From a virus: a stretch of 64,000 bases of DNA. Positions 8,305 through 29,136 of the stretch are shown piece after piece (positions within the stretch are counted from its first letter, which is position 1; each line of letters begins with the position of its first letter). The DNA is taken from the IMG/VR virus record IMGVR_UViG_3300012012_001194, positions 37,504 through 101,503 of that record. One strand, 5' to 3'. The notes under the pieces were generated by a model, which worked only from the letters and a program-made list of their open reading frames with translations, had not been told where the DNA came from and searched no databases. The translations under genes were made by a program, and so were the position numbers.

Positions 8305-11118
8305 TTACACGTTGTTGTCGTCTAGGCTGATGCCTTCGTCAGGGTACGAATCAATAGTCTTCTGCTTGAGGAACAGTAAGAGGTCGCCGAGCTGCTCAAA
8401 GGAGTTCCTAAGGTTGTCTTCAAGCTCAGGGATGTCCTTCTTGCCGTAGCGGTCTTCAAACTTATCTTTGTGCCAATAAAAGCTAAAGAGGATACGCCCA
8501 ATCTTGTCCAGCCCGCCCATAAGGTCGCCCAAGTGACGGTCTACCATCGTGTCATCACGGACAGACTTGATTAAAGTACCAATCATAGAAGTATCAAATA
8601 CGTCCTTTTGGCCGGACTGCGCCGCTTGGTAGCCAACAGCCATGGTATTAGGGTCAGGGAGCCTAGGGTCGTATATCGCTGAGTTTGACTGCAGCGATTG
8701 GCTGCTCATAGCAGGAAGTGCTTGCTGTTGAGGATAAGTAGATTGTACGCTGCCTAGCAACGTAGACTCCATACCCGAAGGTGGAGTTGGGAATGCAGGT
8801 GCAGAGGTGGAGCCCTGCATGGATGAATCAATAGGGTCGCCGGGAGCGGCTGACTTAATTAAATCCCCTGCGTCTTCTTTGGTAGGCAAGTGAACCCTGT
8901 AGTTTACTACCTTATTTTGTTTAGCCTCTTCAAGGATGGTTCTAGCTTGCTTCTCACGGAGAGAAGCGTCACGAACCAAGTGAATAAGAGCATCTTGAGG
9001 AGCCATTATCCTGCCGTTTACAGCAACCTCAGAACCAGTGTGCCGTACATTCAAAGAGGCCGTCTTTTGATAGATAGCGTGTTGAAGGTCGGTAAGGTTG
9101 CCTGGGGTTATAGAGCCGTCGCCGCTGCAGCAGTCTCCTGACAGCTTGATTACTTTAAAGCTACCAGGGATATAAAGGTCACCTTTAATAGCTTTGATGC
9201 GTACGCCTGGCTTTTCAGTAACGTAAAGTCTACGCCCGCCACCGATCAGACGTGGGCCGTAACTGCTCATATCGCAGTCGTCGTAAGAGCGCTTGGTTAT
9301 TACCTTGGGCAAGTAATCGGGTTTAGGCTGCGAGGCACTATCGTGATACATAACTCTGTAGTTTTTTGTGCCATCTGAAGAGCCTTCTACTTTGAGAACT
9401 TCAAAAGGTACGCTAGCGTCGCCGCTTTCGCTGACAGCCATATAAACGCTGCCCTTAGCTAGCGATGAGATCTCAGGGAGCTTCTCAAAGAACTTAGCGT
9501 AGCTGTCGCCGCTGTCTTTACTTTCTGGTGCGTCTTGCCCGCCGTCACGTGGTGGGCGGGTGAATAAGTTGCCTGGATGACTATTGATCCAGTTCTTCTC
9601 GCCTGCGTAGCTAACTACGGTAGCAAAGTCCTGACGACCGGAGGGGCCGTGAGGCATTAGGAAGATAACAGTCTTGAGCATGGAGAACGGGGATATAAGA
9701 AGGTCGTAGATCCCTGTCGTAGGCGGGTTCTCTATAGAGGTCGGCTCTTGAACTCTGTAAGCGATAGCGGCATCGTCCTTAGTTCTGGCATCTCTAAAGA
9801 TGACGCCGTCAGTAAGGAGCTTCTGCTTATCTGCTTCCGAAGAGTCCATGATACCGTCTGAGCCGTTATCAGAGGAGTTGAAGCTTCTTACAATAATAGT
9901 AAGGCCTTGCTTCTCTTGCGGCCTAAGGTACACAGACTCTTCAGATAACACGCCTGGCTCAGTAAGTGTACTTAGCTTAGCTACGGCGTCCTTAATAAAG
10001 GTGCCGCCACAAGCTTTATCAATAGCCTCTGCCATCTTAGGAAACTGCTGGCAGATATCGATGAGGCCCTTGACTAGTTCTCGGTAGCTGCTTTTATTAT
10101 GGGCCGCTTCTTTATTTAAGAATGACTTCAAAGTAAGCTTATTATCGTACTTAGGATCAAGCTCCGGATTAGTGCAAGCATGTTTAGCTAGCTGCCCAAT
10201 GCCGTCGAGCATTTCTTCTCTATCATCTGACCCAGCTTTGTAGCCGGCGGGTACTCCCATGCTTGCTCCACTGTTTCCAGGGTACTGCTGTCTCATGGGC
10301 TGTTGCATAGGGCTAGGGGCTGGACGTCTAGGGCCTTGCGTTCCTGTGCCGCCTTGTCCGCCGTTATATCCTGGAGTGCTCTTTGAAGGGTCCTTTGGAT
10401 CCTTGCGGTACTCTAGACCAGTGCCTCCGTGACCGCCATTCCATCCCGCTACGGTAGCGGCGGGGTCTGGCTTAGAGCGTGTAGGTTGGGTCATCCCATA
10501 GGCTTTATTAGAGGAGAAATTATTAGGGGCTGCACTGGGGTTTGCGTTGTCTTTGATGTTGATAGGAGGGAAGGCTTGCTTAGTATGGGAGGCAAACTTA
10601 GATGGCGGACGGCTGAACGCTTGAAGGTCAGGAGTAAGGAAGCCTAAACGGCTCATGTTTTGATCAGTCTTCTTACCAAGGCTGGCAGGCTTACGGCGTA
10701 AGATGTAGTTAAGCCAGTTTTCTTTAAGCGGTACGAATTGGTCTTGGTCTTTAAGATAGAGGAGCTCATGCCCTTTAAGGTCGCCATTAATAAAGAACAC
10801 AGGAGCGTAGAGCCACTGGGTTCCTACTTTAAAACCAAACAAGCCTACTGCTTTGGTGTTATCTTCATTGCGCTCCATTAGCTCAAACCCAACTTCATAG
10901 TCGAGAAGGCCTGGCGCTTTATCTTTTAAATAAGCATGGGCAAGGTTGCTAAATGCTTGCTCAAACTGAGTGTCGTTGCCTTCGCCACCAAGCTCAGCTT
11001 GCTTGACGAAGCCATTGATAGGGGGCAGTTCGATAAGAAACTTGTTATTATTGCTCATATTCTTAACCTTCCCTGGCTTAGAAATTAACATAGAGCCATT
11101 ATGCTCTTTATTTTCCAA
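8305..11118 (-). CDS. Large hypothetical protein (probably virion-associated; start uncertain)
   Basis: 937 aa; globular blocks separated by low-complexity linkers bounded by KQA/KFAS/KTAS/KSAA. Confidence 0.75.
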   Translation of the reverse strand: MENKEHNGSMLISKPGKVKNMSNNNKFLIELPPINGFVKQAELGGEGNDTQFEQAFSNLAHAYLKDKAPGLLDYEVGFELMERNEDNTKAVGLFGFKVGTQWLYAPVFFINGDLKGHELLYLKDQDQFVPLKENWLNYILRRKPASLGKKTDQNMSRLGFLTPDLQAFSRPPSKFASHTKQAFPPINIKDNANPSAAPNNFSSNKAYGMTQPTRSKPDPAATVAGWNGGHGGTGLEYRKDPKDPSKSTPGYNGGQGGTGTQGPRRPAPSPMQQPMRQQYPGNSGASMGVPAGYKAGSDDREEMLDGIGQLAKHACTNPELDPKYDNKLTLKSFLNKEAAHNKSSYRELVKGLIDICQQFPKMAEAIDKACGGTFIKDAVAKLSTLTEPGVLSEESVYLRPQEKQGLTIIVRSFNSSDNGSDGIMDSSEADKQKLLTDGVIFRDARTKDDAAIAYRVQEPTSIENPPTTGIYDLLISPFSMLKTVIFLMPHGPSGRQDFATVVSYAGEKNWINSHPGNLFTRPPRDGGQDAPESKDSGDSYAKFFEKLPEISSLAKGSVYMAVSESGDASVPFEVLKVEGSSDGTKNYRVMYHDSASQPKPDYLPKVITKRSYDDCDMSSYGPRLIGGGRRLYVTEKPGVRIKAIKGDLYIPGSFKVIKLSGDCCSGDGSITPGNLTDLQHAIYQKTASLNVRHTGSEVAVNGRIMAPQDALIHLVRDASLREKQARTILEEAKQNKVVNYRVHLPTKEDAGDLIKSAAPGDPIDSSMQGSTSAPAFPTPPSGMESTLLGSVQSTYPQQQALPAMSSQSLQSNSAIYDPRLPDPNTMAVGYQAAQSGQKDVFDTSMIGTLIKSVRDDTMVDRHLGDLMGGLDKIGRILFSFYWHKDKFEDRYGKKDIPELEDNLRNSFEQLGDLLLFLKQKTIDSYPDEGISLDDNNV

Positions 11119-11144
11119 CTCTGCAACAATTACAGTGGCGATTA

Positions 11145-11516
11145 TTATCTAGGTCGCATATTTAATAGGTTTCGAGTCATGCTACCGCTATTCATTAGGT
11201 CGAGCATAATTCCAAACCTTGTCGCCTGGGCCATCTTAGCATAATTACCATTCGAGGTGTTAGTGGAGACGTCTCCACTATTTACCTGAGATACGGCAGC
11301 GGCCTGATTAGATACAGAAGGCAGTAGCGTAGACGGGGCCATGGCCTGCGGAAGTGTGTTTACTTGGGCTGCGGCTTGCGGAGATGGCTTACCAGCTTTA
11401 GCAGCAGAAAGGGGAGGCGTAGCGGATGAGCCGCTGCTGGCGGCAGGCTTAGGAATCGATAAGTCTTTTGGAGAAGCGGCGCCAGCAGCTGCCCATTTAT
11501 TAAGAAAATAGCTCAT
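11145..11516 (-). CDS. Low-complexity Ala/Ser/Pro-rich protein
   Basis: 123 aa, coupled to the upstream gene; contains a 20-bp copy of the palindrome. Confidence 0.6.
   Translation of the reverse strand: MSYFLNKWAAAGAASPKDLSIPKPAASSGSSATPPLSAAKAGKPSPQAAAQVNTLPQAMAPSTLLPSVSNQAAAVSQVNSGDVSTNTSNGNYAKMAQATRFGIMLDLMNSGSMTRNLLNMRPR
11261..11280. repeat. Dispersed palindrome copy 2 (20 bp, TAGTGGAGACGTCTCCACTA)
   Basis: Inside the 123-aa ORF, read as SGDVST. Confidence 0.95.
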
Positions 11517-13435
11517 TAAAGTACCCCTTTGTCTTCTTTCATGTCTAAGACACCGTTGTCCATTTGCTTAGTGTTATACCCTTTTACTGGGCCTTTGCGT
11601 CCAAAGTCAACAGCCTTAGCTAGAGAAGGAACATAGGAAGTACTTTGCTCATCACTTATAGCCCCACGATGCACAGCTTGCAGAGTCGACTTTTTAAGGT
11701 TACTACCAAGCATGCGAGTCATCCAGTCGGGGTCATGCTGAAGGTTTTCTAGCCCACGGACAAAGTGAGGCTCAAAAGGAGCGGGCTTATTATGGACGGT
11801 AACCTTACCGACGCCGAAGTCATTAAAGTCATTAATCATCGAAGGCTTAATCTTAGTACCTATGGTGTAGTGCAGAACTGGCTGCTCTAAATAATTACCT
11901 ACTGATTCACTAGGGGTTACTATTCTATGTCCCTCTCTAGGTTCCCAGTCGTGCTCCACTGAGTCATAGGGGACAACATCATCTGGGGCAAATTGTTTGT
12001 ACTCATCCGTAAGCTTAATGTGATTAATAAGCCCTTTCGACATAACCTCAATATTACGACGATTACCGCCCATGCCGGCGTTTCTCATAGCACCTTTGAA
12101 AGCTTGAACAAACTGCCTGCGCCCTTCGCCTATGCCTTTGAACTTAGTCAACTGAGCAGGGTTTGCTATGCCGTCAGAAAGGGTGTCGCCAGCCTCTACT
12201 GTATCGTTGAGCTTTACAGATACTGCGGCTTCAGGGTTAACATAGTGGTCTACCCCGTTGATAGCTACAAAATACCCGCCGGTTGCTGCTGGCTTAATGC
12301 CTGTAACCTTTCCATCTGTCTGTGCGTGGGCGGCCCAGTAAGGAGACTGCTTAGGCGCCTGCACCAATTGATTTAAATGTTTAAACCCTGATACGGCTCC
12401 TGCGGCTCCGGCTACGCCACCAGTATGCTTTGAGCTCAGCTGCCCTTGGGAGATTGGCTCCGAAAGCGCTTGCATCGCAGCAATACCTACAGAGTCTCCA
12501 ATAGGAGCAAAGCCTCCCCGCTCTCTTATTCCTAAGTCTCTAGAGTAAAGTCCGCCATCGGGAGCGCCCATGGCTATTGGACTACGAACTAGAAGCCGTT
12601 TAAGGTTCTTAGACTTTAAATCTTTAAGTATTCTTGGAGTTAAGACGGTGTTTCTGCCATACCCTCCAGCCGGCATAGCTAGAAGAGCGCCCTCGTTATC
12701 ATCATCCTCGATGTCTACAGGAAGCCCGCGGTTTTCAGACCTCGTAGGATCCTCAGCGTCGTCGCCTACCACGATCATCCTATGGCCGATTTGATTAAGC
12801 TGCTTTGAGAAGAACCCAGCGTCCATGGTGGCGAACTTGGTATCCGCAACCCCTTTACGAGCTCCGAAAGCTCCAGCAAAGTATTCTGCAGGGTTAAGAC
12901 CTTTAGAATAGGAGCTGAATACCGGAATAGGTATTGGGTTGTCGTGGTGGTCTGTGTAAAGTAAGTCACCGCCCCTTAAGCTTTTAAGGTTCATCGGCTT
13001 ACCACGGGACCCAGACTGAATCTGTCTAGCTAGCTGATTATTCTCCCTGACGGAGTCATCGAATATACCCTTCTCCATGTCCTTCTGAGAGTTGTTCAGC
13101 AAGTCGATCATTTGGTTGTTTTTACCGGTCTCGTCGTTCTGAGGGTCAGCCATAATGCTGGCTATGGCGGTTCTAAGCTTAGCCTTTGCATCCATAGAGT
13201 ACTTAGACTCTCTGAGATCTTTAAGGCCGAACGAGAACCCACCGCTGCCATAAGCCACATCTCTACCAATGTCGTAGAGCTTCTTTGACACTTCTTTGTA
13301 CTTATCAGGGTGCTGCTCCGCTATGGTCTGCATGAGCGCTGCAGAGGACTTAGAATCTAAAGTTCTAGAGTAGTCCTTAAGTTCATTAGGGAGGGCGTCG
13401 TTAACCATGATCTGACCGATGGTGGTCCTAAGCAT
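11516..13435 (-). CDS. DNA-directed RNA polymerase, beta' C-terminal half
   Basis: RTTIGQ, SGSRG, GLNPAEYF..GARKGVADT...AGFFSKQL (bridge helix), GDSVGIAAMQALSEPISQGQLSSKHTGG (trigger loop), all matching RpoC motifs. Confidence 0.92.
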   Translation of the reverse strand: MLRTTIGQIMVNDALPNELKDYSRTLDSKSSAALMQTIAEQHPDKYKEVSKKLYDIGRDVAYGSGGFSFGLKDLRESKYSMDAKAKLRTAIASIMADPQNDETGKNNQMIDLLNNSQKDMEKGIFDDSVRENNQLARQIQSGSRGKPMNLKSLRGGDLLYTDHHDNPIPIPVFSSYSKGLNPAEYFAGAFGARKGVADTKFATMDAGFFSKQLNQIGHRMIVVGDDAEDPTRSENRGLPVDIEDDDNEGALLAMPAGGYGRNTVLTPRILKDLKSKNLKRLLVRSPIAMGAPDGGLYSRDLGIRERGGFAPIGDSVGIAAMQALSEPISQGQLSSKHTGGVAGAAGAVSGFKHLNQLVQAPKQSPYWAAHAQTDGKVTGIKPAATGGYFVAINGVDHYVNPEAAVSVKLNDTVEAGDTLSDGIANPAQLTKFKGIGEGRRQFVQAFKGAMRNAGMGGNRRNIEVMSKGLINHIKLTDEYKQFAPDDVVPYDSVEHDWEPREGHRIVTPSESVGNYLEQPVLHYTIGTKIKPSMINDFNDFGVGKVTVHNKPAPFEPHFVRGLENLQHDPDWMTRMLGSNLKKSTLQAVHRGAISDEQSTSYVPSLAKAVDFGRKGPVKGYNTKQMDNGVLDMKEDKGVL

Positions 13436-13437
13436 GA

Positions 13438-13656
13438 TTAGCCTCCAATAGTGAGCTTCTTAATGATAGGTGGTGTAATTCCATATTGTTTAAGGACACT
13501 TGCAAAATCAGCATCACCTGCTGTATAGCAGGTGATTGTGTTATCAAGGTTATCAAAGAACAAAGCGATCGGGTTATTAAAGCTGTCATAAATGACTAAC
13601 CTTGTCGCCTTCGTTATAGGGCCCGCATTAAACGAGTCATGATAATCAAGAAGCAT
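13438..13656 (-). CDS. Hypothetical protein
   Basis: 72 aa, tightly packed between its neighbours. Confidence 0.6.
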   Translation of the reverse strand: MLLDYHDSFNAGPITKATRLVIYDSFNNPIALFFDNLDNTITCYTAGDADFASVLKQYGITPPIIKKLTIGG

Positions 13657-14329
13657 TTCTTCTGTTCTTTCTTAATAAGTGAAGGATGCCTGCAGCCTTC
13701 TCACTAACGCTAAAGTTATCAGCAGCTGTCTTGATTGGTGCAGCACCTTGGTCAGGTGAAGGAGCGCCGCCTTGGTCCTGTTTCTGGCCGTCTGCACCTT
13801 GCTGGCCTTTAGGGTCATCAAGGATATCATGAGGCAAGTTAAGCCCGAGGGATGAGTAAAGATGGGTCATGAGCTTTTGAATACGGTGCATGTACACCTC
13901 AGTCTGAGCTCCGTCATTCTTCTTTACAGCACCTTTACCGCCGCCTTTTGCTTCAGCCATAGCTCGTTGCATTTCGTCTTTTACAACTGACCTAATTTGC
14001 TCTGTAGGGTCAGGAGGAGGAGGAGGGGCACCGCCCATCATGGAAGGATCCATAGGGGGAGCACCACCGGCCATAGCAGGGTCCATAGGAGGAGCACCGC
14101 CAGCCATAGCAGGATCCATAGGAGGAGCACCACCGGCCATAGCAGGATCCATAGGAGGAGCACCACCGGCCATGGCGGGATCCATTGGAGGAGCGCCTTG
14201 TGGAGGGGCGCCGCCCATAGAAGGGTCCATTGGAGGAGCTCCTGGAGGAGCGCCTGCACCCTCTGGAGGCATGAAGGCTCGCTTAACATTGAGTTGTGCC
14301 TGCTTCAAAAGATACTTGTTGATAGCCAT
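13646..14329 (-). CDS. Hypothetical protein with MDPAMAGGAPP repeats
   Basis: 227 aa; KQA/KRA at the N-terminus; tandem 11-aa repeat. Confidence 0.7.
   Translation of the reverse strand: MAINKYLLKQAQLNVKRAFMPPEGAGAPPGAPPMDPSMGGAPPQGAPPMDPAMAGGAPPMDPAMAGGAPPMDPAMAGGAPPMDPAMAGGAPPMDPSMMGGAPPPPPDPTEQIRSVVKDEMQRAMAEAKGGGKGAVKKNDGAQTEVYMHRIQKLMTHLYSSLGLNLPHDILDDPKGQQGADGQKQDQGGAPSPDQGAAPIKTAADNFSVSEKAAGILHLLRKNRRNAS
14045..14197. repeat. 33-bp coding tandem repeat (about 4.5 units)
   Basis: Units resembling AGGATCCATAGGAGGAGCACCACCGGCCATAGC, with synonymous variation. Confidence 0.9.
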
Positions 14330-14378
14330 GTTAATTACCCTTCTTATATGTTTAAAACGTTAATTGCCGTTATCGTCA

Positions 14379-15875
14379 TCAATCCTTGGAATAATCTGGA
14401 TACTCGTCAACAATCTGCATGTTTGGCTTTGATACAGTACTTGACTCCATTAAGCCGCCTAGTAAATCATTAGCCATGCTCGCTGGCAATCGTTTTCCTT
14501 CGCCCGCAGAGGTGCTAGGGGACAAGTACGTACTCCTGTCAACGCCTGTATTACCCATCCCCTTTCTAATCGCCATCTCATTAACCCCAGCGCCACCTAA
14601 GCCGCCGATAGCGCCACCAGCAAGAGCACCACGGCCAAGTCGACCAAGAATACCTACGCCTTTCTTTCGTTTACCAAACATAGCGTTACCTACGCCGCCT
14701 ATTGCAGCGCCTGCGCCGCCACCTAGGATAGCCGCCTGAGCTGTAGGGTCAAGACCTTTATAAGCATCTAAAGCCTGAGCTCCCATGCCCTTAAGGCTTT
14801 CTAAAAAAGCTCGCTTGTGCATGGTTCCGTTTTGATGACCAAGGCGAGCGGCAAAGGCTGCCGACTTGTTCACCTTTTTACCCTTTTTTTTGTTATTATC
14901 ACTTATGAACTTTCTCATCTCCCCGTGGGCTCCCTTGAACTCATTAGGAACATCATCAGTCAAGTCGTCATAGTCTTTTAAGTCGTCTGATGCGCCCTTT
15001 TCAAGTTGCGATCTTAAGCGCTGGTTACGAACGGCTGCGTCGTATCCTTCAAATCCGCCGCCTAGTAAAGATATAAGAGCCCCCGCTCCGGATCCAGCTC
15101 CTAAACCGCCTGCTAAGGATGCAGCAGCCATAGGTTCTGCGACCCCGGCAGCGCCTAGCATACCTACGCCCTGCCCCATTCGTCCAAATAACTCGCCCAC
15201 AGCGCCTGTAGTCCTGCCGACGTTACCCTCTTGGTAACGAGGCGAGCGGCCAGCTAATTGCTCTAAAGCGTCAACAGATCCGGCTCGATGAAATCCCCCC
15301 GCAGGCAGCAGGGCTCCCCACCTACTTAAATGCGGGTCTGCCGCAGCTAGATCCATAGTTTGGCCTTCAGCTTTAGCTTTATTATATTCGTCCCTAATTG
15401 TAGCGATCTGGCTAGCTCTGGCTGCATTATTTCCTAGGGCTCCGAGTGTTGCACCAATGCCAGTCCCAAGCATGGCACCTCTAGGGCCATTAGCGAATCC
15501 ACCTATGGTGGCGCCTCCAGCGGCGCCTAAAAGCGAAGTCAATACCCTTGCAGTATTTGGATTGGTTATGTTAAAAGCCGGGCTGTTACCCATGGCTTTA
15601 GATAATGTCGTGGCTTTACCTGCCCTAGCATCTGAGTACGGTAATCCCAGAACGTCACCAGCGGTGGCCCAGCGGCTGCCACTTAAAAGTTCATCATCAG
15701 GGCCGCCATACCCCTTGGGCGCTGCTTTAGGAGGGCCTCCAGCAGGCTTAGGCTTATTAGGTTCATAGGAGTATTTAGGCTTTTTCTTATCAGGAGCATC
15801 AGCCTCTTCCGCTTGCTTGTATAATTGCTCTAATGCTAACTTAAGTTCGGCGGCTTGGGCTGTAACACTATTCAT
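14379..15875 (-). CDS. Glycine-zipper membrane-type protein
   Basis: 498 aa, multiple GxxxG segments; modules separated by KQA/KGAS/KSAAF/KRAF. Confidence 0.7.
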   Translation of the reverse strand: MNSVTAQAAELKLALEQLYKQAEEADAPDKKKPKYSYEPNKPKPAGGPPKAAPKGYGGPDDELLSGSRWATAGDVLGLPYSDARAGKATTLSKAMGNSPAFNITNPNTARVLTSLLGAAGGATIGGFANGPRGAMLGTGIGATLGALGNNAARASQIATIRDEYNKAKAEGQTMDLAAADPHLSRWGALLPAGGFHRAGSVDALEQLAGRSPRYQEGNVGRTTGAVGELFGRMGQGVGMLGAAGVAEPMAAASLAGGLGAGSGAGALISLLGGGFEGYDAAVRNQRLRSQLEKGASDDLKDYDDLTDDVPNEFKGAHGEMRKFISDNNKKKGKKVNKSAAFAARLGHQNGTMHKRAFLESLKGMGAQALDAYKGLDPTAQAAILGGGAGAAIGGVGNAMFGKRKKGVGILGRLGRGALAGGAIGGLGGAGVNEMAIRKGMGNTGVDRSTYLSPSTSAGEGKRLPASMANDLLGGLMESSTVSKPNMQIVDEYPDYSKD

Positions 15876-15960
15876 ATCAACACTCCATGTTAAAAATGAG
15901 CAACTTAAACTCTATTGGAACAGTTTAAACTACATAATACAACGGCGCTACTGCAAACGA

Positions 15961-16599
15961 TTAGTCAAGAAGTAGTGGAGAAGCCTTCCTAAGCAGCTCG
16001 GGACGAAGCAACCCGTAGTCCCTTAGAAGCTTTGAAGTTCCTAAGAGGTTTTCATTGTGCCTGCCTGCACTGTAGTATCCGGCAGCTCCGCCAGCAGCAG
16101 CTGGCGCCAAGGTCGCCATGATTGAAGTAGATAGGGGCTGGCCCGTCAGCTTGCTAGCGGCTAAGCCACCAAGACCGCCGATCCCTGCATACCCTAGCGC
16201 TCTAAGCGTTGGGTTAGCCTTATGACTCTTAAAGTCATACTTCTCACTAGGATCGTTCTTTAATTTGTTGATGATGTTCTCAAAGCCAGGCCGGCCTAAG
16301 CCATAACCACTAAGATCGTCATCAGTAGGTTGAACCATGCTCTTGGCTTGGTCCAGCATAGATATAGCCATAGGCATACGGTCAGGACCGGGCTGCATGA
16401 AGTCCTTAAGGTTCATATTGCGAGCGGACTTCTCAGACGTTAGCTTGCTCCAGTTCTTCTTATCTGGGTAGGCTTCGCTTCCTGGCTTGGCGGGAGTTCC
16501 GCCTCTTTTCTTTTTTGCTTGAATGTTAGCCCACAACCCAGGGTTGCTCTCAGATGCTGATGATTTAAAGAACAAGCTATGTAATCCCTGTAAGCTCAT
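15961..16599 (-). CDS. Hypothetical modular protein (basic GLWANIQAK micro-domain plus glycine zipper)
   Basis: Likely start MSLQGLHSLFFKSS at 16599, after AAGGAG. Confidence 0.65.
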   Translation of the reverse strand: MSLQGLHSLFFKSSASESNPGLWANIQAKKKRGGTPAKPGSEAYPDKKNWSKLTSEKSARNMNLKDFMQPGPDRMPMAISMLDQAKSMVQPTDDDLSGYGLGRPGFENIINKLKNDPSEKYDFKSHKANPTLRALGYAGIGGLGGLAASKLTGQPLSTSIMATLAPAAAGGAAGYYSAGRHNENLLGTSKLLRDYGLLRPELLRKASPLLLD

Positions 16600-16729
16600 G
16601 ATCGGCTCCTTAGATAATAACCCAGCTGAAAAAGCCTCGTCGCTCTGACACACTTCCGCTTCGAGCAACGATTAGTCCCAGGAAAGTGCTAAAACAGGCC
16701 CTAGCCTTTCCAGCCAAGTACACATAATA

Positions 16730-18223
16730 TTACTCTTTACTTCCAATTTGTTTAAGCAAATTAAGGAATTGCTCATTTAATTCCTGCTTTCTATTAGCGG
16801 CAGAAATCAAATAGTCATCCGTAGCTGGTACTGGATCTGCTCCAACACCCACATATCTCAACATAGATCTTAGCCTACCGGGGGCTGTCCTAGCTATGTA
16901 TCTTTCTATTTGAACCTTCCTATCTTCTATAGGGAGGTGCTCATGGCTATCAAAGCGCAAAGCCCTTCCTTCACTCTGACTACTCCTAGCAGTGTTCCAA
17001 TGCGGGTCTAATAGCTGAACTAGCTTAGTTCCCTTAAAGGAAAGACCCTCAGTTCCAGACGGGCCTAAGAGCGCAACCTTAAGCTTGTCGGTATTGTAGT
17101 CGTCTACTAAGCGCTTACGCTCTTTATCAGATAGGGCGCCCGTGAAAGAGGCAGCTGGAATGCCAGCTCGGTCTAGCGCCGCTTGATAAGGGGAAAGCCC
17201 AGCATCAATGAAGTTGGAGAAGATCAGGGCTTTGCCCTTGGGGTCTTTATCCAAGAGCCCTTTAAGATTACTAAAGGCAGTGGTCAGCTTGGGCGAGTCA
17301 TCAAATGCCTTTTGGACATCTTTGTTACCCTTCATAAATGGAAGAGTAGAAAGACCTACCTGTCTCAGCCCCGTCATGAAGCTGGTCATTCGGCTGACCT
17401 CTTCCTGCGTCAGCGGGTAATTCATCTTGAGCTTCCATCGAAGCGCAGCAGGAAGCTGCCCCATCATGTAGCTGTTAAGGTCGGTCTGGTTTTGGCTCAT
17501 CTCTACGACGACGTCTTTGCGGTTAATCTCAGCTTTGGGAGCCAGAGGTGCAAAGTAATCCACCTTCCCTTGAAGCTTGTTTTTAAGCTGATCTTGGTTG
17601 ATGATCGATGGCTCGCCGGGAGCCCCGTTGAAGATGCGCTTGTACCACGGCTGCTTGGGAGCCTCATCCATGTACATGTTACCGAACTCTTCAGGGCTCA
17701 TGTCCTCGCCAGTGAGGATGTTATAAGGCACTGTGAAGTCGCTTGGGTCGTTAACTACTGGTGTGCCCGTGAGAAGCACCACCTGCCTAGCCTTTCTAGC
17801 AGCTTCTACTAGGTTCTTGGCTTGAGCCGAGTTTGGATTACGGAAGCGATGAGCCTCATCTACTAAGAGGGAGCCTGGGTTCTCAATCGTACGGCCAAGC
17901 GCTACTCCGGTGTGGCTCATGATGCTACTTGGCGTAGCAGTTGGTTGATCAATAAACTTTTCCTGCTCCTTACGTAAGTTGTTACGTAGAGAAGCTGGAA
18001 CTACAGCGGTGTAAGGTATTTTTGACTCGTCTGCTGCAGCTAAGCCGCTTAGTGTTTTTCCAGACCCAAGGCTGTGATAAAGCAACATACGAGCTTTGCC
18101 AGCTGTGTCTAACTGTTTCTGTACCTTATCTACTACTCCCTGCTGGTGCGGCTGCAGCGAGATATTAGGATTAAGGTCAGCCTGTTTTGTGGAGACGTCT
18201 CCACTAATGTAGTCTTGGGTCAC
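16730..18223 (-). CDS. SNF2-family (SF2) helicase/ATPase
   Basis: Q-motif LQPHQ, Walker A HSLGSGKT, DEAH, LLTGTP, EGLS, QSEGRALR. Confidence 0.9.
   Translation of the reverse strand: MTQDYISGDVSTKQADLNPNISLQPHQQGVVDKVQKQLDTAGKARMLLYHSLGSGKTLSGLAAADESKIPYTAVVPASLRNNLRKEQEKFIDQPTATPSSIMSHTGVALGRTIENPGSLLVDEAHRFRNPNSAQAKNLVEAARKARQVVLLTGTPVVNDPSDFTVPYNILTGEDMSPEEFGNMYMDEAPKQPWYKRIFNGAPGEPSIINQDQLKNKLQGKVDYFAPLAPKAEINRKDVVVEMSQNQTDLNSYMMGQLPAALRWKLKMNYPLTQEEVSRMTSFMTGLRQVGLSTLPFMKGNKDVQKAFDDSPKLTTAFSNLKGLLDKDPKGKALIFSNFIDAGLSPYQAALDRAGIPAASFTGALSDKERKRLVDDYNTDKLKVALLGPSGTEGLSFKGTKLVQLLDPHWNTARSSQSEGRALRFDSHEHLPIEDRKVQIERYIARTAPGRLRSMLRYVGVGADPVPATDDYLISAANRKQELNEQFLNLLKQIGSKE
18189..18204. repeat. 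Dispersed palindrome copy 3 (16 bp)
   Basis: 5' end of the SNF2 gene. Confidence 0.95.
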
Positions 18224-18225
18224 GG

Positions 18226-21200
18226 CTACTCCACTATGACAACTTTGTCGTTGGCATCAATCTCGCCGGAACGGTACGCACGCATGGCATCAGCCTTAGT
18301 CTTGAAGTACCTCTCTGGCCTCTTAGATGCTTCAGAAGTGGCGGTGTAGAGCCCGCCTTGGTATTCATTCATTGGCAACTGATGAACCTTGAAGTTCTTT
18401 ACAGCGAACAGGTTTCTGCTGGGTAGCATCTTCTCCATAGCGTCTTTAACCGCTTCGTCAGTAGTAGGCACATGGTAGTTCATAGCATCGCCATCGAAGT
18501 CGGCGCCAAACCCTTTTACAATAATAGGAGGAACTTGAAGAGTACTTCCCTTAACAAGGGTAGGCCTAAACGCCATAACCCCATATCTATGTAACACTGG
18601 AGCACGAGTAATGATAACAGGTCTTGCTTCCATCTCAGAAGTCATGGCATCCATAGCCATCTTATCTTTATTCTCTATCATTTCTGCGGCTTTAAACCTA
18701 TCAACTCCACGCCTGACTAATCTTCTCATAATAAATGGCTTATACACTGCCCAAGCCCTGTCTTCAGGGATACCGACTTGATCCATGTCCAGTTCTGGAT
18801 TAGGAGTAATAGCAGCCCTACCTACCATGTCAACATTAGATGCTAATAGCTTTCTTTGAAGGACACTGAACTTAGGGTTATCACCAAAGACTTGCTTTAG
18901 TATTCCCTTTACGTTCTTCTGCTCTAACTTTGGATTGGTAGCATCGCCAAGCCCAGTTACGGCTTTGAGGGAGTCATAAACGCTTGTTCTATGCTCAGAA
19001 AGATCAGAGAAGCTCTTGGACGACTCCCTCATCTCGTTGTTAGAGTCGATCAACTCTTTATAAAGATAGTTAGCGTCTCCAACCATAGGCAGCCCGCTTG
19101 ACTGCATCACGCTAACTGGCCTAAATAAAGGAGGAAGCACAGGAGCTTTAGACATCATCCAGTCAGATGGATGCATATTCAGTTCTTTAGTGCTCTTAAG
19201 ATACCCAAGTTTACGAACTGCTTCATCTCTGTAAGACTTCTTACCAGAAGCTATCTGAGCTCTGGCTTTCATGATCTCTTGGTCGACATTGATCTTCTTT
19301 AGTGCTATCCCAATAGCGTTAGGTCCCTTAACGCCGTTAAGAGCTTCTTTACCAGCTAATACGTCTCTAAATTTGTTCTCTGTTAATCCCAGTACTTTGC
19401 GTATGGGCTCTTCCATAACAGGGTTAGGCATCGGCTCGTGCAGCTTTATGTGGCTCCACATCGTACCGCCATGGCCGCCCGTAAGCTTAGGGTCAAATAA
19501 CCCATCACCGACTGGCTTCATGCCGCCTTCCCAATCTACGGTGTCGGATCGCTTAATCTCACGATCGCCTGAGAGGGAGTCTATATCTCTATCAGTCAAT
19601 GCCATGAGCTGTGTCTTGGAGCCGCTGCGCACGGGGTTAATTCCAGCTGCTTGGAGCTGTGCCATAAACTTGCGATAGGTCAAAGGCACTCTAGGGATTG
19701 GCATAGCCTTGCCCCCCATGAAGGCCGCCCAGTAATCATCGTTCTTCTGGCCTCGAATAGCTCCTGCGTCTCTTAGAACCTCATGGGCCCCGTGAGAGAG
19801 TAGAGCGTTAACGTCCATGAGGGCCATTCTTTTAGATCCGGTCTCTCCGCCTTTAGCCGGGGTCTCTTCAGCGGTGTACCCGCTAGAAATTCCTCGACCT
19901 TGGCCTTTAGACTCAGAGGTGTGATGCAACTTCATAAAGAAGCGATTGCCTGTGAAGATGTTCTTAATCTTCTTACCTGACTCAGGATCTTCGAGGTCTT
20001 CCATATCACTAAGGTTGTTTTTTCTAAGCTCATCGATAGCGAACTCAGTAAGGTCTTCGATGTTGTCGAAGTCTTTAACTGCGTAGCGTTTACCTGTCTT
20101 CTCAGATATCTTTCCAAGAGCAGCTTCTACCATCTGGCTTGGATTAGTTCGAGTAATAACCCCAAGCGGGTTTAGTAGTACTTCAAAGGGCCGTCCGTCT
20201 GCGCCTTTTGGCATCTTGTCATCAGGAACAACAGTGGAGATAACTCCTTTATCACCATAACGCCCGGAGAGCTTATCTCCTTCTTTCATGGGGTTAAGGC
20301 TCTTTACCGTTACTGCAAATCCTTTTTTAGTTTGAGCCACGTCGGTAACCACACCTTCGTTCTCGTGATCCCACGTGGTGCTGGCGTTATTAAACCCAGT
20401 CCTAGACCTTCCAACTTGCTGGTTATGGGCTCTTGAGAGTACGTTAGCTTGTAAGATAAGTGGGTCACCTTTTCTTACAACTGTACCCGGCTTAATCACA
20501 CCGTTGTCGTCAAGGTTGTCTACGAGGGCCCTAGAATAATCAGAAGGAAACAGTGTAAGAAACGCCCGCTTTCCAGGCTTGGTGTCTTTGTCAAATTCAG
20601 CCTCATGCTGATACATGTGCTCAGAGGTTAGACGTTTAGCTGCGCCTTCTGAAATAACAATAGCGTCTTCAAAGTTGTAACCCTTGTAAGGTATGTAGGC
20701 GGTTCTAAGATTAGTGCCTAGCGCAGATGTGCCTTTGTCATTAGTGTAGTTAGATCTAGCTAACAAGTCACCTTGGTTGACAACATCACCAACTTTTACG
20801 GTAGCCGTGTTATGTAGAAAAGTCTTACGGTTGAATGGAAGATTATTATAGATCTCTTTCTTGTGAAGCTGGCCGTCTTCTCCCCGTACATGAATCTCAT
20901 CACCATCTACTTTGATTACTTGGCCCGCTACATCAGAGTGTATAGCGCCCATATGTTTACCGTAATCTTCCTCATAAGACTTGTCGTCTTCATCGGGCAT
21001 ACCTGATTGCACATAAGGGGCTTCAGGGTTTTGTAGGGGTAGCGCCTGCGTAAGCATGCGGGCGCCCATCATTACTCGCTGCCCTTTGGTAGCGCTCTTA
21101 AGAGGAATCATATTGGCTAGCTGATTAAAGGCGTGCTCCATGCGAGGAAGCTCATGGCTAACCTCTGCTCTGTTCACGTACTTGATCTTACCGTTAACTA

Positions 21201-22701
21201 AAGCAGCTATCTTTTGATTATTAGGATCTCGAAGCTGATTAGGGAACGCCACAACAGAGTCGGCCATCTCTTGAGGAGTTCGCCACACTTGCTCGTTAGT
21301 GTTCACGTCTCTAAATCCGCCATACACCTTTCCATCAATACCTTTTCTGGAGTTGATAGCAATACGACTGTCTACGCCTACTTTGAGAGACTCTGGAGTT
21401 AGCAAGGGGTCTACAAAGCCAAAGTGAGACGGCTGTACGTTACGAGCCTCTTCAGGTACAGATTGCAGCGAAGGGATACCGCCTTCACCGAGGCGGCTAA
21501 TCCTAGTTACTTGGTTAAGCAGGTCGGCAGGGTTAACTTCTTCAAGGGGTTGGCCTAACCCGCTAGTCATAATGGCGCCATTAATCTGAGAGTTTAAAAA
21601 CCCAGCGCTGAAAGGGCTTAGGTTCTTCCTGAAGCTAGCCTTCCATAGCAGAGGGCGCATTACTCGGTGTGCAGCGTTGACCCTTTCTGCAAATAAGTCT
21701 TCAGGCCCAACCATAGACTGATACGCCATAGCGTCACGGTCGTCTGGGTCTACCTCTTTACGGTGGACAGCTAATATCTTCTTAGTAGCAGCTAAAATAG
21801 AATCTGCTGATACGTTCTTAAACGGCTGACCTAAAGTGCGAGACGTAACCTCGGGATCCATCTCCATCTTGGCGATAGCTTCTAATATAGATTGCTTTTT
21901 ACTCTCTGCGGTATGAATCTCGCCTGCCTTAGTCTTGCCTATCTTGGCAAACAGCTTTTCCATATGGTTTGGATCGTCGGTAGCAGAGTTAGCACTGTAG
22001 ATCTCATTACCCCAGGCTTCTCTAAGCTGCTTGTCAGTAGCGCCAAGGGCTTTTAGTAAAGGAGTAACAGGTACAGAGGATTGGCCGAAGCCTATAGAAA
22101 ATACACCCTTCTCAGGATCTAGCGAGTAGCGATGGGACGAGCCTTTTCCTGGCATAACGTTGACATGGCTTTCGACTTCACCATTCTTAGCGATACGAGT
22201 GAACACGCCTGGCTTTAGCCGCATTTGATTAGCTAACGTGTATTCAGTGCCGGTGACGATGAAAGTGCCACGGTCGGTCATATAGGGAACTTTAGCCAGC
22301 GTAGTTCTACGGGTGTCTAGCGTATCGCCAGTAACATTATCTGTTAATGTTAGCGTACCTTTAAGTGCCCGATTTAAGGTATCGCCCTTAAGAATTGCAT
22401 TCTTCTGTGACTTGATAGACTTCTGCTCATCGGGGTCGTCCCAGCCAATATCCGAAACACTTAAGGTGTGCCTCTGGTTTACTAATGGTTGGATGTTAGA
22501 TGCGGCAGCTTGAATACCAGAAAAGATAGCAGTCCTAGTAGCTTTGATATCATCAAACTTGCGCATTGGCGGCGGTACGGGGGGTTGCATAACGGGCGGC
22601 GGCAGGGTAGGAGCTGCCGTAGAAGCAACCAAGCCGACTGGCTTAGGCTTAGTCGGCTCGGAGCTCAGAACACTGTTATCGTCATCAAGTATTCCAGCCA
22701 T
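18226..22701 (-). CDS. DNA-directed RNA polymerase: beta fused to the N-terminal catalytic half of beta'
   Basis: Beta motifs: TPES..VG, GYNFEDAI, GDKLSGRYGDKGVIS, LNPLGV..R.N..Q, KLHH. Beta' motifs follow: GLFDP, PVLPP..RP, RAPVLHR, and catalytic GADFDGD at 18487-18507. Confidence 0.95.
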   Translation of the reverse strand: MAGILDDDNSVLSSEPTKPKPVGLVASTAAPTLPPPVMQPPVPPPMRKFDDIKATRTAIFSGIQAAASNIQPLVNQRHTLSVSDIGWDDPDEQKSIKSQKNAILKGDTLNRALKGTLTLTDNVTGDTLDTRRTTLAKVPYMTDRGTFIVTGTEYTLANQMRLKPGVFTRIAKNGEVESHVNVMPGKGSSHRYSLDPEKGVFSIGFGQSSVPVTPLLKALGATDKQLREAWGNEIYSANSATDDPNHMEKLFAKIGKTKAGEIHTAESKKQSILEAIAKMEMDPEVTSRTLGQPFKNVSADSILAATKKILAVHRKEVDPDDRDAMAYQSMVGPEDLFAERVNAAHRVMRPLLWKASFRKNLSPFSAGFLNSQINGAIMTSGLGQPLEEVNPADLLNQVTRISRLGEGGIPSLQSVPEEARNVQPSHFGFVDPLLTPESLKVGVDSRIAINSRKGIDGKVYGGFRDVNTNEQVWRTPQEMADSVVAFPNQLRDPNNQKIAALVNGKIKYVNRAEVSHELPRMEHAFNQLANMIPLKSATKGQRVMMGARMLTQALPLQNPEAPYVQSGMPDEDDKSYEEDYGKHMGAIHSDVAGQVIKVDGDEIHVRGEDGQLHKKEIYNNLPFNRKTFLHNTATVKVGDVVNQGDLLARSNYTNDKGTSALGTNLRTAYIPYKGYNFEDAIVISEGAAKRLTSEHMYQHEAEFDKDTKPGKRAFLTLFPSDYSRALVDNLDDNGVIKPGTVVRKGDPLILQANVLSRAHNQQVGRSRTGFNNASTTWDHENEGVVTDVAQTKKGFAVTVKSLNPMKEGDKLSGRYGDKGVISTVVPDDKMPKGADGRPFEVLLNPLGVITRTNPSQMVEAALGKISEKTGKRYAVKDFDNIEDLTEFAIDELRKNNLSDMEDLEDPESGKKIKNIFTGNRFFMKLHHTSESKGQGRGISSGYTAEETPAKGGETGSKRMALMDVNALLSHGAHEVLRDAGAIRGQKNDDYWAAFMGGKAMPIPRVPLTYRKFMAQLQAAGINPVRSGSKTQLMALTDRDIDSLSGDREIKRSDTVDWEGGMKPVGDGLFDPKLTGGHGGTMWSHIKLHEPMPNPVMEEPIRKVLGLTENKFRDVLAGKEALNGVKGPNAIGIALKKINVDQEIMKARAQIASGKKSYRDEAVRKLGYLKSTKELNMHPSDWMMSKAPVLPPLFRPVSVMQSSGLPMVGDANYLYKELIDSNNEMRESSKSFSDLSEHRTSVYDSLKAVTGLGDATNPKLEQKNVKGILKQVFGDNPKFSVLQRKLLASNVDMVGRAAITPNPELDMDQVGIPEDRAWAVYKPFIMRRLVRRGVDRFKAAEMIENKDKMAMDAMTSEMEARPVIITRAPVLHRYGVMAFRPTLVKGSTLQVPPIIVKGFGADFDGDAMNYHVPTTDEAVKDAMEKMLPSRNLFAVKNFKVHQLPMNEYQGGLYTATSEASKRPERYFKTKADAMRAYRSGEIDANDKVVIVE

Positions 22702-22702
22702 T

Positions 22703-23650
22703 TTAGGCCTCGTATTCTAGAGTTTTACCTATGTCACCGGAAGGTCTAAGAGTTTTCTTGTTTTTAGCGACATCTACGGGAACAGGAATTGAATAGATGG
22801 GCTGCCCCTCTATTGCTCTGCGGTTAAGGAACTCGTTGAGGTAACGTTGGGATTCTAGCTTCTCAGCGTCGTTCTTCTTGGCATCTTGATACCCTGTGTA
22901 TATACCTGCAGTACCGAGGCCCAGACCTAGCGCTCCGAGTACACCGGCGTATCCTTTTAAGGCGTCCTTAGGATTTGGAGTATTATCTTTAATCTTCCTA
23001 CCTAACGCTCCAATACCCGCAACCACGTTTCCACCAAAATCCAATAAGTTGTCCTTAGCTTGCTTCTCGCCTTCAGAATGAAACTCAGCTAACTTCTCTA
23101 AGTCCTCAGCCAAACTAGCGGACTTAACCGCTTTAATAGGCGAGCTCAATCTATTAGAGTGAGCCTCTACTAGAGCCTTACCAAATTCAGCTTTAGCGTC
23201 GGTAAGCTCTTGATCTTTCTCTGCTTTAACTTTCTTAGTTAGCAAATGGTTTATAAGAGAGTAGCTTCCAACCGCTGGAACAGCGGCGGCAGTAAGCGCC
23301 GCTGAAAGATAGTAAGGGTTAGCCAGATCACCAGGCTGAAACTTTGACTCCTTTTCCATGGAGATATTCTTGCCGGGTTTATAAGTACCTAGATTCTTTG
23401 CTTTACCTTTAAGCTTGCGCTTACGTCTACTCTCAAAGAACTCAGAAGTGCCTGGAATGGCACTCTGACCAGGAACAGGGACTTCCACCATGGATCCGCT
23501 AGGAGCACCAAGGGTTGACTCCCTGTCTGTGAGAAGCGAGCCGCTATTTAGATGCTTAAGCAGAGCTAAGCCAGAGCCCCCTAGTAAGCTATAAAGACCA
23601 GTCCTCTTTAAATCTTCCATCTGCCTAGAGTCGAAATAATCGTTTGGCAT
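22703..23650 (-). CDS. Hypothetical membrane-associated protein
   Basis: 315 aa, three hydrophobic segments, KSAS/KLA/KQA motifs. Confidence 0.65.
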   Translation of the reverse strand: MPNDYFDSRQMEDLKRTGLYSLLGGSGLALLKHLNSGSLLTDRESTLGAPSGSMVEVPVPGQSAIPGTSEFFESRRKRKLKGKAKNLGTYKPGKNISMEKESKFQPGDLANPYYLSAALTAAAVPAVGSYSLINHLLTKKVKAEKDQELTDAKAEFGKALVEAHSNRLSSPIKAVKSASLAEDLEKLAEFHSEGEKQAKDNLLDFGGNVVAGIGALGRKIKDNTPNPKDALKGYAGVLGALGLGLGTAGIYTGYQDAKKNDAEKLESQRYLNEFLNRRAIEGQPIYSIPVPVDVAKNKKTLRPSGDIGKTLEYEA

Positions 23651-23652
23651 TG

Positions 23653-24003
23653 TTATCTCCTAGTTGGAACTATCTTTCCTTGAATGTCCGCCCACTCCAT
23701 GTGGATGCTTATCTTCTGTTTGTCTTCAGAGATGAGCTTTGTCCTATCTATCTGAACGCAAGCCCTGTTAGCTATGAGATCTCTTACTTTTGCGTATTCC
23801 TTAAGGTCTTCAGGATTGCTTAGATCAAATATCTTGACCTTTACATCCAGTTGCAGAGGGATATTCTCATACTCCTCCTGCGTTGTATTAGGGGCCATTG
23901 GCCCGCCAGCAATTGGAAAGCCCTGCGCCGTAGTGCCGGAAGCCTGTCGGTACTTTACGCCAACGCCGCCAAGCCCAAATTGACTTAGTATTTTATCGTT
24001 CAT
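23653..24003 (-). CDS. Hypothetical protein
   Basis: 116 aa, operon-style packing. Confidence 0.65.
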   Translation of the reverse strand: MNDKILSQFGLGGVGVKYRQASGTTAQGFPIAGGPMAPNTTQEEYENIPLQLDVKVKIFDLSNPEDLKEYAKVRDLIANRACVQIDRTKLISEDKQKISIHMEWADIQGKIVPTRR

Positions 24004-24012
24004 AATGCCTTT

Positions 24013-24429
24013 CTAGTAGCGTGTTACGCCGGAGATGCCACGATCTCGTTCTCGCTTACGCCTTGTCATCTCAGTCTGTCGCTTAATAATCTCTGTCAGC
24101 CTATCATACTCATTGGTGATCTCCTCTTGAAGGAGGTCGTCCTTAGATGGGATAGGGGGCTTGGTAGCTTGATACAACCCCGGACCTAGCAGCTTATTAC
24201 CAAGATAGTAACTGCCTGCGCCGCCAAGAGCAGCAAGGCCTCCCCCGGTATAACCAAGATCTCTAATAAGGGGCAGCGGGTTAAGGGCGTCAAACCAAGA
24301 TTTGCCCTCGGCGCTCTTCTCAGCTAAAGCAAGAGCTTGCTTAACTCTCACATGAATTTGATCAAGGGTAAGCCCGTCCTCAACACACTTGGCCAAAAAG
24401 GCTACCTTAAACATTTGCTTGTCGTTCAT
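24013..24429 (-). CDS. Hypothetical protein with glycine-rich hydrophobic segment
   Basis: 138 aa; KVA/KSA motifs. Confidence 0.65.
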   Translation of the reverse strand: MNDKQMFKVAFLAKCVEDGLTLDQIHVRVKQALALAEKSAEGKSWFDALNPLPLIRDLGYTGGGLAALGGAGSYYLGNKLLGPGLYQATKPPIPSKDDLLQEEITNEYDRLTEIIKRQTEMTRRKRERDRGISGVTRY

Positions 24430-24433
24430 AATG

Positions 24434-24790
24434 TTATCCTAGTATGATACCTGAGTTAGTTACGCTAGCGCCTGTAGACCAGATCCTACGATTATCGTGT
24501 GCTAAGTCTTTTATGACCTTAGCGTCTGTAGGGTCGCCCTGTTCCTTGGCTTCTTGAATGCACAGCATGATGTCTCTAGCCGCTGCAATAATCTGAGACT
24601 TCTCATCTTGGTGCTGGACTCGGCTGGACTCCTCAAACAAGGCCTTGGCCCTCTTTCTCATGACGCTAATAGGCTCGGACTTGTCAGAGCCGTCTCTGCC
24701 GTCGTGAATACGGATAAGCCCGCCTTCAGCCCAGAATTCTATCTGGTTGTATTTATAAGTCTTCTTAATGCTAATCGAAGGAACATCCAT
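24434..24790 (-). CDS. Hypothetical protein
   Basis: 118 aa, operon-style packing. Confidence 0.65.
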   Translation of the reverse strand: MDVPSISIKKTYKYNQIEFWAEGGLIRIHDGRDGSDKSEPISVMRKRAKALFEESSRVQHQDEKSQIIAAARDIMLCIQEAKEQGDPTDAKVIKDLAHDNRRIWSTGASVTNSGIILG

Positions 24791-24849
24791 AACCAGCCCT
24801 TTCAGTTAAAACCCAATAATACACTAATTTAAGCAGGCTGTCACTCAGC

Positions 24850-28929: not shown

Positions 28930-28957
28930 TTATGACGCATTTAAAGGCTGAATTAAG
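28930..28957 (-). promoter_or_regulatory. Bipartite promoter-like motif P1 (CTTAATY-N12-GCGTCATAA)
   Basis: One of five copies with an identical 12-nt spacer, each upstream of a cassette. Confidence 0.75.
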
Positions 28958-29128: not shown

Positions 29129-29136
29129 AAGCCCTT

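Follow-up and report, generated by a model that had tools for sequence, protein, structure and literature searches.

Does a virus known from metagenomic DNA encode a complete RNA polymerase (RNAP) of the bacterial type in only two polypeptides, and when during infection would such an enzyme act? This question is raised by a locus in a viral DNA stretch of 64,000 nucleotides (nt), positions 37,504 to 101,503 of the IMG/VR record IMGVR_UViG_3300012012_001194, which we refer to as the window. An earlier note, made from the letters of the window, had described here an RNAP with an unusual split. One chain of 1491 amino acids (aa), chain A, was assigned the beta subunit together with the N-terminal part of beta', and a second chain of 639 aa, chain B, the C-terminal part of beta'. 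The window makes up the final 64 kilobases (kb) of a viral contig of 101.5 kb with a CheckV completeness of about 49%. The minus strand carries nearly all genes of the contig, with 7 of about 100 on the plus strand. A megablast comparison of the region with 50,697 phage records gave no match. Among bacterial genome assemblies there were 18 matches, all to contigs of metagenome-assembled genomes with mutually inconsistent labels, which therefore provided no host information. The coordinates of all features are collected in Table 1.

Chain A (P0001) ran from beta straight into beta', as the note had claimed, and Pfam, BLASTP and a multiple sequence alignment (MSA) agreed on this. The Pfam domains followed in the order Rpb2_3 and Rpb2_6 (residues 596-939, 174 bits), Rpb1_1 (weak) and Rpb1_2 (residues 1289-1423). 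BLASTP aligned residues 135-1022 with positions 124-1336 of E. coli beta, and residues 1106-1491 with positions 160-554 of beta'. In the MSA the end of beta (GIN...) passed into the start of beta', and about 17 N-terminal residues of beta' were dropped. The junction was placed at 19591-19644, within the range of about 19560-19680 proposed before. Both double-psi beta-barrels, along with the clamp helices, sit on chain A, whose C-terminus was reached 86 residues past the catalytic loop GADFDGD; the predicted early stop and the presence of both barrels on one chain were thus found. The N-terminal zinc ribbon of beta' (C70/C72/C85/C88 in E. coli) was indeed deleted, a short TGGHGG loop taking its place in all 15 aligned phage sequences, including those of Salmonella phage Arash and Vibrio phage D69.

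The motifs DFDGD, GDKG and KLHH, the R/G/K of the bridge helix and the trigger-loop His were invariant across the family, and the equivalent of beta' R425 was retained as HRYG. The proposed change of NADFDGD to GADFDGD was upheld only in part. The G is present here, but the residue preceding ADFDGD varied among 121 relatives (G in 66, N in 35, A in 9, M or L in 10), and the active site of Arash and D69 reads AADYDGD, with A at the variable position. Judged from these alignments, the G is a lineage variant and not a trait of the clade or a feature of the architecture. The rifampicin pocket showed the replacements D516E, H526Q and I572D (E. coli numbering). Since substitutions at these three positions are known to give rifampicin resistance in E. 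coli, insensitivity of the phage enzyme to rifampicin is predicted.

Chain B (P0002) starts at about residue 570 of E. coli beta', and by BLASTP its residues 61-340 corresponded to E. coli beta' 630-939. Alignment to Thermus beta' assigned the bridge helix and the trigger loop to this chain, as expected from the earlier note, and a model from AlphaFold2 (AF2) with a predicted local distance difference test (pLDDT) score of 74.7 agreed. In a Foldseek comparison, the model resembled beta' chains of bacteria over about 600 columns (expect value (E) 8e-22). The catalytic His of the trigger loop was retained (SSKHTGG), while Met and Arg of the bacterial motif were substituted. Replacement of the C-terminal zinc cysteines could also be confirmed: compared with the cysteine-bearing Thermus sequence, all four cysteine positions of the second zinc site, the first included, hold other residues in chain B.

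The source of the fusion is a single metagenomic contig that is only about half complete, and the fusion might have arisen artificially, from a chimeric assembly, a frameshift or an overlooked stop, or the gene might be in decay. A protein search with chain A gave 1573 matches, and the following figures refer to the best 120. Nearly all of these were 1450-1500 aa long, had both barrels and showed 54-91% identity. Their source assemblies were those of JGI, ENA, Logan and NCBI, and many of them lay on contigs 190-235 kb in length. The chain B family was equally large, most of the 120 listed members having 613-690 aa. In public data the clade is represented by more than 1000 proteins, and in IMG/VR by 219 stretches. 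When 80 IMG/VR loci were taken around chain B, both genes were present in 79. An intact, full-length fusion open reading frame (ORF) was located upstream of chain B on the same strand in 59 of the 79, with a median gap of 979 nt. In the remaining 20, chain A was cut by the edge of the locus or had in-frame inserts or intervening ORFs. The interruption sites lay at residues of about 438, 830, 955 and 1087, and in none of the 79 loci was the beta/beta' junction a gene boundary. Arash (gp206, gp216) and the Vibrio phages D69, D181 and D148 had identical fusion and break points. Because the arrangement is kept at only about 25-31% identity in these phages, we consider it to be old.

An assembly error at the junction, which the earlier note had named as a danger, is excluded by more than 100 independent assemblies with the same ORF, by the 79 loci and by the cultured phages. 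Decay of the gene is contradicted by the invariant catalytic residues. The homologous ORFs and the survey of the loci thus refuted the artefact reading, for which we see practically no chance. No close relative had separate beta and beta' genes; such genes were found only in the distant Kleczkowskaviridae and mReC phages.

Insertions were seen in both genes of the family. Longer members of the chain A family bear intein or LAGLIDADG domains. In-frame inserts in chain A were observed at loci L020, L022, L024, L029, L047, L071, L078 and L088-L090, and the gene appeared as two ORFs at L023, L031, L039, L081 and L087. Chain B was also invaded, with LAGLIDADG-bearing forms of about 1015-1040 aa (e.g., P0162 and P0170). 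Chain B was extended at its C-terminus by 570-800 aa, or carried a NUDIX domain (PF00293), at L025, L027, L028, L031, L039, L040, L045, L058, L081 and L088 and in P0185 and P0214.

The inventory of further subunits was based on 22 near-complete relatives of 181-235 kb, six of which have terminal repeats. Each of the 22 genomes had one beta' barrel locus. Alpha had been reported as not visible in the window, and this also applied beyond it: PF01000 gave no match in the 22 relatives and in the own 101-kb record, and PF01193 gave none in the own record. For omega (PF01192) the result was 0 of 23, the own record included. Positive controls of these profile searches were found in 14 of 14 cases; very divergent analogues could escape them.

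The statement that no sigma factor is visible held for the window, but not for the phage. Canonical Sigma70_r2 (PF04542) had no match in the own 101-kb record and matched in only 3 of the 22 relatives. A 276-aa sigma-like ORF is, however, located elsewhere on this contig, 34 kb outside the window (contig positions 14787-15617), and was found only via its homology to Arash gp10, which is annotated as 'RpoS'. All 22 relatives have a homologue. The protein could be aligned as sigma regions 2.1-2.4, 3 and 4.2. The 20 members tested all matched sigma-70-family NCBIfam models over nearly the full length, with scores far below the curated cut-offs, and all 20 also matched Pfam Sigma70_r3. With the AF2 model (pLDDT 75.8) as a query, the top Foldseek hits were chains of SigA, SigD, SigB and sigma-S (best E 3.7e-8, probability 1.00). 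We concluded that the 276-aa protein belongs to the sigma-70 family as a very divergent factor, and that its gene is part of the core set of the clade.

A predicted complex of the beta' part of chain A (residues 1023-1491) with this sigma reached a score of 0.76, and the best of three controls reached 0.00. The mark of 0.76 was attained by 58 of 80 solved complexes and by 2 of 110 mismatched pairs, a calibration that is only approximate here (custom alignments). The runs shared at least 61% of contacts, and the pLDDT of the partner was at least 71. In the modelled interface, the clamp helices (residues 1196-1244) contact sigma residues 51-90. The contact between sigma region 2 and the clamp helices is the textbook interface, and because sigma/beta' complexes have already been solved, the score may show likeness and not binding.

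Phage sigma factors can also redirect the host RNAP, as T4 gp55 and SPO1 gp28 do. The sigma-like protein could act in this way, with the phage core using another factor or none, as in phiKZ-type phages. Phage sigmas acting on the host core are common, as is generally known and also described in the jumbo-phage RNAP review. Furthermore, the flap tip of beta, which binds sigma region 4, is 8 residues shorter in chain A, and the deleted zinc ribbon of beta' is a sigma-contacting element in bacteria. The presence of the sigma gene in every relative, its lack of cysteine like that of the core, and the predicted clamp-helix interface, with the reservation just made, argue for a role with the phage core. 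The virion proteins of Arash point in the same direction: gp10 is listed together with the core, and the second, more canonical sigma factor gp196 is not among the virion proteins in the parts of the table covered (PMC10585845). Redirection of the host RNAP therefore appears quite improbable to us.

Mass spectrometry of Arash virions is also informative on the fate of the core itself. In the parts of the data covered, gp206 had the most spectra of all proteins (3516), followed here by gp216 with 1210, gp217, the homologue of a helicase encoded next to chain A, with 1148, and gp10 with 467 (PMC10585845). Divided by the lengths of 1525, 606, 472 and 234 aa, this corresponds to 2.3 (gp206), 2.0 (gp216), 2.4 (gp217) and 2.0 (gp10) spectra per residue; the portal has 1.5 and the major capsid protein 4.3. 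The near-equal counts fit a roughly equimolar complex in many copies. In the present contig, homologues of the Arash major capsid protein and of structural proteins flank the RNAP genes, in agreement with the claimed location among virion genes, and the RNAP genes were embedded in a structural module in three deeply diverged lineages. Packaging, which the earlier note had called plausible, gained support since gp206 and gp216 rank high by number of spectra in purified virions of Arash, the one phage in which both chains are known from the particle. We consider the Arash proteomics as suggestive of packaging.

Not one of the 2903 residues of chain A, chain B, helicase and sigma factor is a cysteine (P about 4e-11 under the contig mean of 0.83%, calculated from ORFs of 150 aa or more). 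Homologues were free of cysteine in 97 of 121 cases for chain A and in 110 of 121 for chain B, and the cysteine-rich ones were mostly intein-bearing. The sigma homologues were cysteine-free save three with doubtful start calls. Since cysteine is avoided completely in both chains, both zinc sites were lost as part of a purge of cysteine that is strict and conserved. Cysteine-containing proteins of the contig include the capsid homologue (2), a structural homologue (10) and a ribonucleotide reductase (20). For Arash we counted 1 cysteine in gp206, 4 in gp216, none in gp10 and gp217, 3 in gp196, and 9 and 5 in two other helicases. We tested the rule that a cysteine-poor protein is a packaged one on the two RNAPs of phiKZ. 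The virion RNAP has 16 cysteines in 2614 aa and the non-virion paralogue 33 in 2850 aa. This is the right direction, but the difference is only two-fold and gives weak support at best. Further cysteine-free ORFs were found at 13646-14329, 14379-15875, 22703-23650 and 24850-26247.

Two observations concern more distant parts of the contig. A cysteine-free run of ORFs of 162-976 aa, broken by few cysteine-containing ones, extends over 43686-58692 on the minus strand, and a cysteine-free ORF of 1818 aa lies upstream of the window (contig positions 18568-24024). From their composition, these may represent further packaged or ejected proteins.

With a probability of roughly 0.6, we interpret the locus as encoding a minimal bacterial-type RNAP that has no alpha, depends on sigma, is packaged and injected, and is the only RNAP of the phage. 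The description as a streamlined bacterial-type enzyme was borne out by a subunit plan that is both unusual and conserved. The core would consist of two polypeptides, chain A supplying the barrels and the clamp helices, and chain B the bridge helix, the trigger loop and the remaining beta'. In a phage without alpha and omega, the covalent link between beta and beta' would stand in for the assembly platform that the alpha dimer normally provides. Promoters would be recognized by the dedicated, divergent sigma factor docking canonically on the clamp helices, for which the predicted complex gives some support. Core, sigma and, in this lineage, the SNF2 helicase would be packaged and delivered with the DNA, as suggested by the cultured relative and by the composition, and the injected set would begin transcription without the host enzyme. 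Proteins free of cysteine and zinc would be suited to wait in an extracellular particle, to pass the tail and to refold. With no second RNAP set, later genes are probably transcribed by this core too.

Several points weigh against this interpretation. The phage is known from its sequence alone, and the case for packaging is built on a cultured relative and on composition. Packaged RNAPs do not in general avoid cysteine, as the phiKZ virion enzyme and Arash gp216 demonstrate. The SNF2 helicase is not an obligate partner, being present in 13 and absent from 9 of the 22 relatives. It is also conceivable that the sigma factor works with the host RNAP. The half of the contig that is missing may encode another subunit; the 22 near-complete relatives argue against a hidden alpha, omega or second RNAP. 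Finally, the Arash virion preparation also held ribonucleotide reductases, RNA ligases and primase, and its authors allow for carry-over of abundant intracellular proteins (PMC10585845).

The last point would fit an RNAP that is made after infection for middle and late genes and contaminates the Arash particles, the early genes being read by the host RNAP. With a single RNAP set per genome, the enzyme would have to be synthesized during infection in any case. Mere contamination does not readily account for near-equal per-residue counts of core, sigma and helicase that exceed that of the portal, or for the location in a structural module in lineages so deeply diverged. Moreover, cysteine avoidance is common to other likely particle proteins, but not to the neighboring ribonucleotide reductase, and sigma-70-type promoters showed no excess around the genes (20 versus 19.2 expected in 8000-27000). 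We regard a purely intracellular enzyme as unlikely and prefer the packaged one.

More tentative, with slightly less than even chances in our view, is the complete scenario. In this scenario a three-chain holoenzyme without cysteine and zinc self-assembles without alpha, is stored in the capsid, is threaded through the tail, refolds, and carries out a rifampicin-insensitive transcription programme that is independent of the host. If a packaged, sigma-dependent enzyme is confirmed, it would be the first virion RNAP that uses sigma, and a large, widely distributed clade of phages of about 200 kb would have it as sole transcriptase. The enzyme would also represent the smallest polypeptide set known for a sigma-using RNAP of the cellular type, and a natural experiment with an RNAP that can dispense with every cysteine, with both zinc sites and with alpha and omega. 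This bears on the assembly of multisubunit RNAPs, on the survival of large enzymes during packaging and ejection, and on the independence of phages from host transcription, hence from rifampicin and from defences that target the host RNAP. A two-gene, cysteine-free core with one sigma factor could be an attractive orthogonal transcription tool. Because the clade has a cultured member, Arash, packaging, sigma-dependence and alpha-independence are directly testable.

How does this enzyme compare to known systems? Relative to the bacterial beta/beta' type, the barrels, DFDGD, the bridge helix and the trigger loop are present, and the zinc sites, alpha and omega were not found. Most similar is Arash (OQ632216), whose gp206 (1525 aa) and gp216 (606 aa) align end to end with the present chains at 31% and 25% identity. 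Arash has the same fusion and the same break in beta', the deleted zinc ribbon, the location in a structural module, the SNF2 protein gp217 and the sigma-like gp10. It differs by its AADYDGD motif, by chains that are not strictly cysteine-free and by the second sigma gp196. The Arash paper labels gp206 as 'beta' and gp216 as 'beta'', and the parts covered do not mention the fusion, the split or the loss of the zinc sites (PMC10585845).

The RNAPs of phiKZ/AR9-type phages are likewise phage-encoded two-barrel enzymes without alpha and omega, one set is packaged, beta' is broken after the barrel, and an SNF2 gene is linked, a linkage also noted in the jumbo-phage RNAP review. They differ in having four to five chains, with beta also split and no fusion of beta to beta', and in having two paralogous sets without sigma, specificity coming from subunits of the gp68/gp226 type. 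The same review and a comparative jumbo-phage study describe four- or five-chain, sigma-less enzymes in two sets. Pfam Rpb1_2 remained blank in phiKZ, whereas the present enzyme scored 78-174 bits. Membership in the phiKZ type was rejected, as beta is unsplit and fused here, only one set exists and a sigma is present.

Cyanobacterial and plastid RNAP also has a divided beta', the cut lying between the catalytic barrel and the bridge helix. The end of chain A corresponds to about residue 552-556 of the 624-626 residues of gamma, roughly E. coli beta' 546-554. The break is thus about 45-70 residues before the RpoC1/RpoC2 boundary, and a split of the cyanobacterial type was rejected. In cyanobacteria, beta is separate, and alpha, omega and both zinc sites are kept. 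In Helicobacter and Wolbachia, the C-terminus of beta is joined in frame to the whole of beta', and alpha is retained. The phage shares the joining of beta and beta', but its beta' is cut again after the barrel and alpha is absent.

The mReC phages and the Rhizobium Kleczkowskaviridae resemble the present phage in being Caudoviricetes with an RNAP near enough to the cellular one for COG or Pfam. Among the PHROGs, phrog_24349 and phrog_25354 matched the present chains best; each profile spans about 1200 positions, the former corresponding to beta and the latter to beta'. Both groups differ in having separate genes for beta (about 1000-1400 aa) and beta' (about 900-1130 aa), which are often adjacent. 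The beta' of the Rhizobium Kleczkowskaviridae is unsplit and has 1127 aa. For mReC phages, separate beta (about 1000-1400 aa) and beta' (about 900-1010 aa) genes were described (Weinheimer and Aylward 2020, PMC7481178). The parts of the supplementary table of that study covered here have no entry for a pair of about 1480 and 630 aa. On the basis of architecture, separate genes there versus fused and split ones here, membership in the published mReC clade was rejected as far as these parts go. In the literature, we found no paper describing the fused-and-split plan, the cysteine-free composition or the dedicated sigma.

Table 1. Features of the RNAP locus and candidate promoters (positions in the window; residues of the respective chain).
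Feature	Position	Strand	Basis and remarks
RNAP chain A gene, complete beta + N-terminal beta', in frame	18226..22701	(-)	P0001, 1491 aa, 0 Cys; Pfam, BLASTP, full-length homologues
Beta/beta' junction GINPVRSGSKTQLMALTD	19591..19644, residues 1020-1037	(-)	MSA with E. coli RpoB+RpoC, Arash gp206, Vibrio D69
Short loop GLFDPKLTGGHGGTMWSHIKL replacing the beta' N-terminal zinc ribbon	19441..19503	(-)	MSA
Beta' clamp helices, predicted sigma docking site	18958..19116, residues 1196-1248	(-)	Aligned to E. coli beta' 255-315; modelled interface
Catalytic loop GADFDGD	18487..18507, residues 1399-1405	(-)	DFDGD invariant in family
RNAP chain B gene, C-terminal beta'	11516..13435	(-)	P0002, 639 aa, 0 Cys; Pfam Rpb1_5, phmmer to PDB beta' chains
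Bridge helix	12779..12865, residues 191-219	(-)	Thermus beta' alignment; model helix 194-217
Second beta' zinc site replaced by RSPIAMGAPDGGLYSRDLG, no Cys	12530..12586	(-)	Thermus beta' alignment
Trigger loop	12359..12487, residues 317-359	(-)	Thermus beta' alignment; H337 invariant in the family
SNF2/SF2 helicase, 497 aa, 0 Cys	16730..18223	(-)	Pfam Helicase_C, ResIII, SNF2-rel_dom; PHROG 62
CTTAAT-N13-GCGTCATAA, candidate sigma-type promoter	28930..28957	(-)	One of five exact copies
Other CTTAAT-N13-GCGTCATAA copies	29707-29734, 30788-30815, 60036-60063, 60814-60841		Exact matches

The window contains five copies of the motif CTTAAT-N13-GCGTCATAA, given in the earlier note in the form CTTAATY-N12, compared to 0.06 expected. 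The two closest relatives have 10 and 5 copies and more distant ones about 1, and reversed-pattern controls gave 0. We take this two-block motif with its GC-rich extended -10 to recall promoters of group-3 sigma factors such as sigma-28. To judge from the motif, it is a plausible target of a sigma-containing enzyme, which could be the phage core, the likely reader according to the earlier note, or the host core with the phage sigma. Small cassettes behind this motif were seen at 28914-29136, 29614-29729 and 30504-30817 on the minus strand; they terminate in strong hairpin/T-tract terminators, followed by TAGCTAT. In 8000-27000, intrinsic terminators showed a weak excess (26 versus 18.2 expected), and the scan of this region revealed no convincing terminator between the RNAP genes.

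The helicase gene lies directly downstream of chain A, and its product shows 34% identity to the virion-detected Arash gp217 (E 2e-74). In one relative of 226 kb, the SNF2 domain (G005:C1:134717-136141) is part of an open frame of 2984 aa, and elsewhere such frames have 650-1160 aa. Pfam and PHROG searches of 20 neighboring ORFs recognized nothing beyond this helicase and the ribonucleotide reductase. The latter (26179-28524, plus strand; PHROG 367, E 4e-144) contains 20 cysteines and is divergent to the cysteine-free block. Directly downstream of chain B, an ORF of 937 aa (8305-11118, minus strand) keeps its position in 79 of 80 loci. It had no match in Pfam, PHROG or ESM Atlas, and could be a virion protein or an RNAP-associated protein. 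The ORF at 13646-14329 (minus strand) encodes a low-complexity, cysteine-free protein of 227 aa with a BLAST homologue in 23 of 80 loci. Where listed, these homologues lie between the genes for the two chains. The protein may act as an accessory subunit or as a linker.

Finally, a perfect 14-bp palindrome, TGGAGACGTCTCCA, was present in 10 copies in the window, with 0 expected. One copy (18190-18203) is located just past the stop of chain A, within the start of the SNF2 gene, and another (11264-11277) is 240 nt downstream of chain B. The palindrome is possibly a signal for transcription, processing or genome organization.

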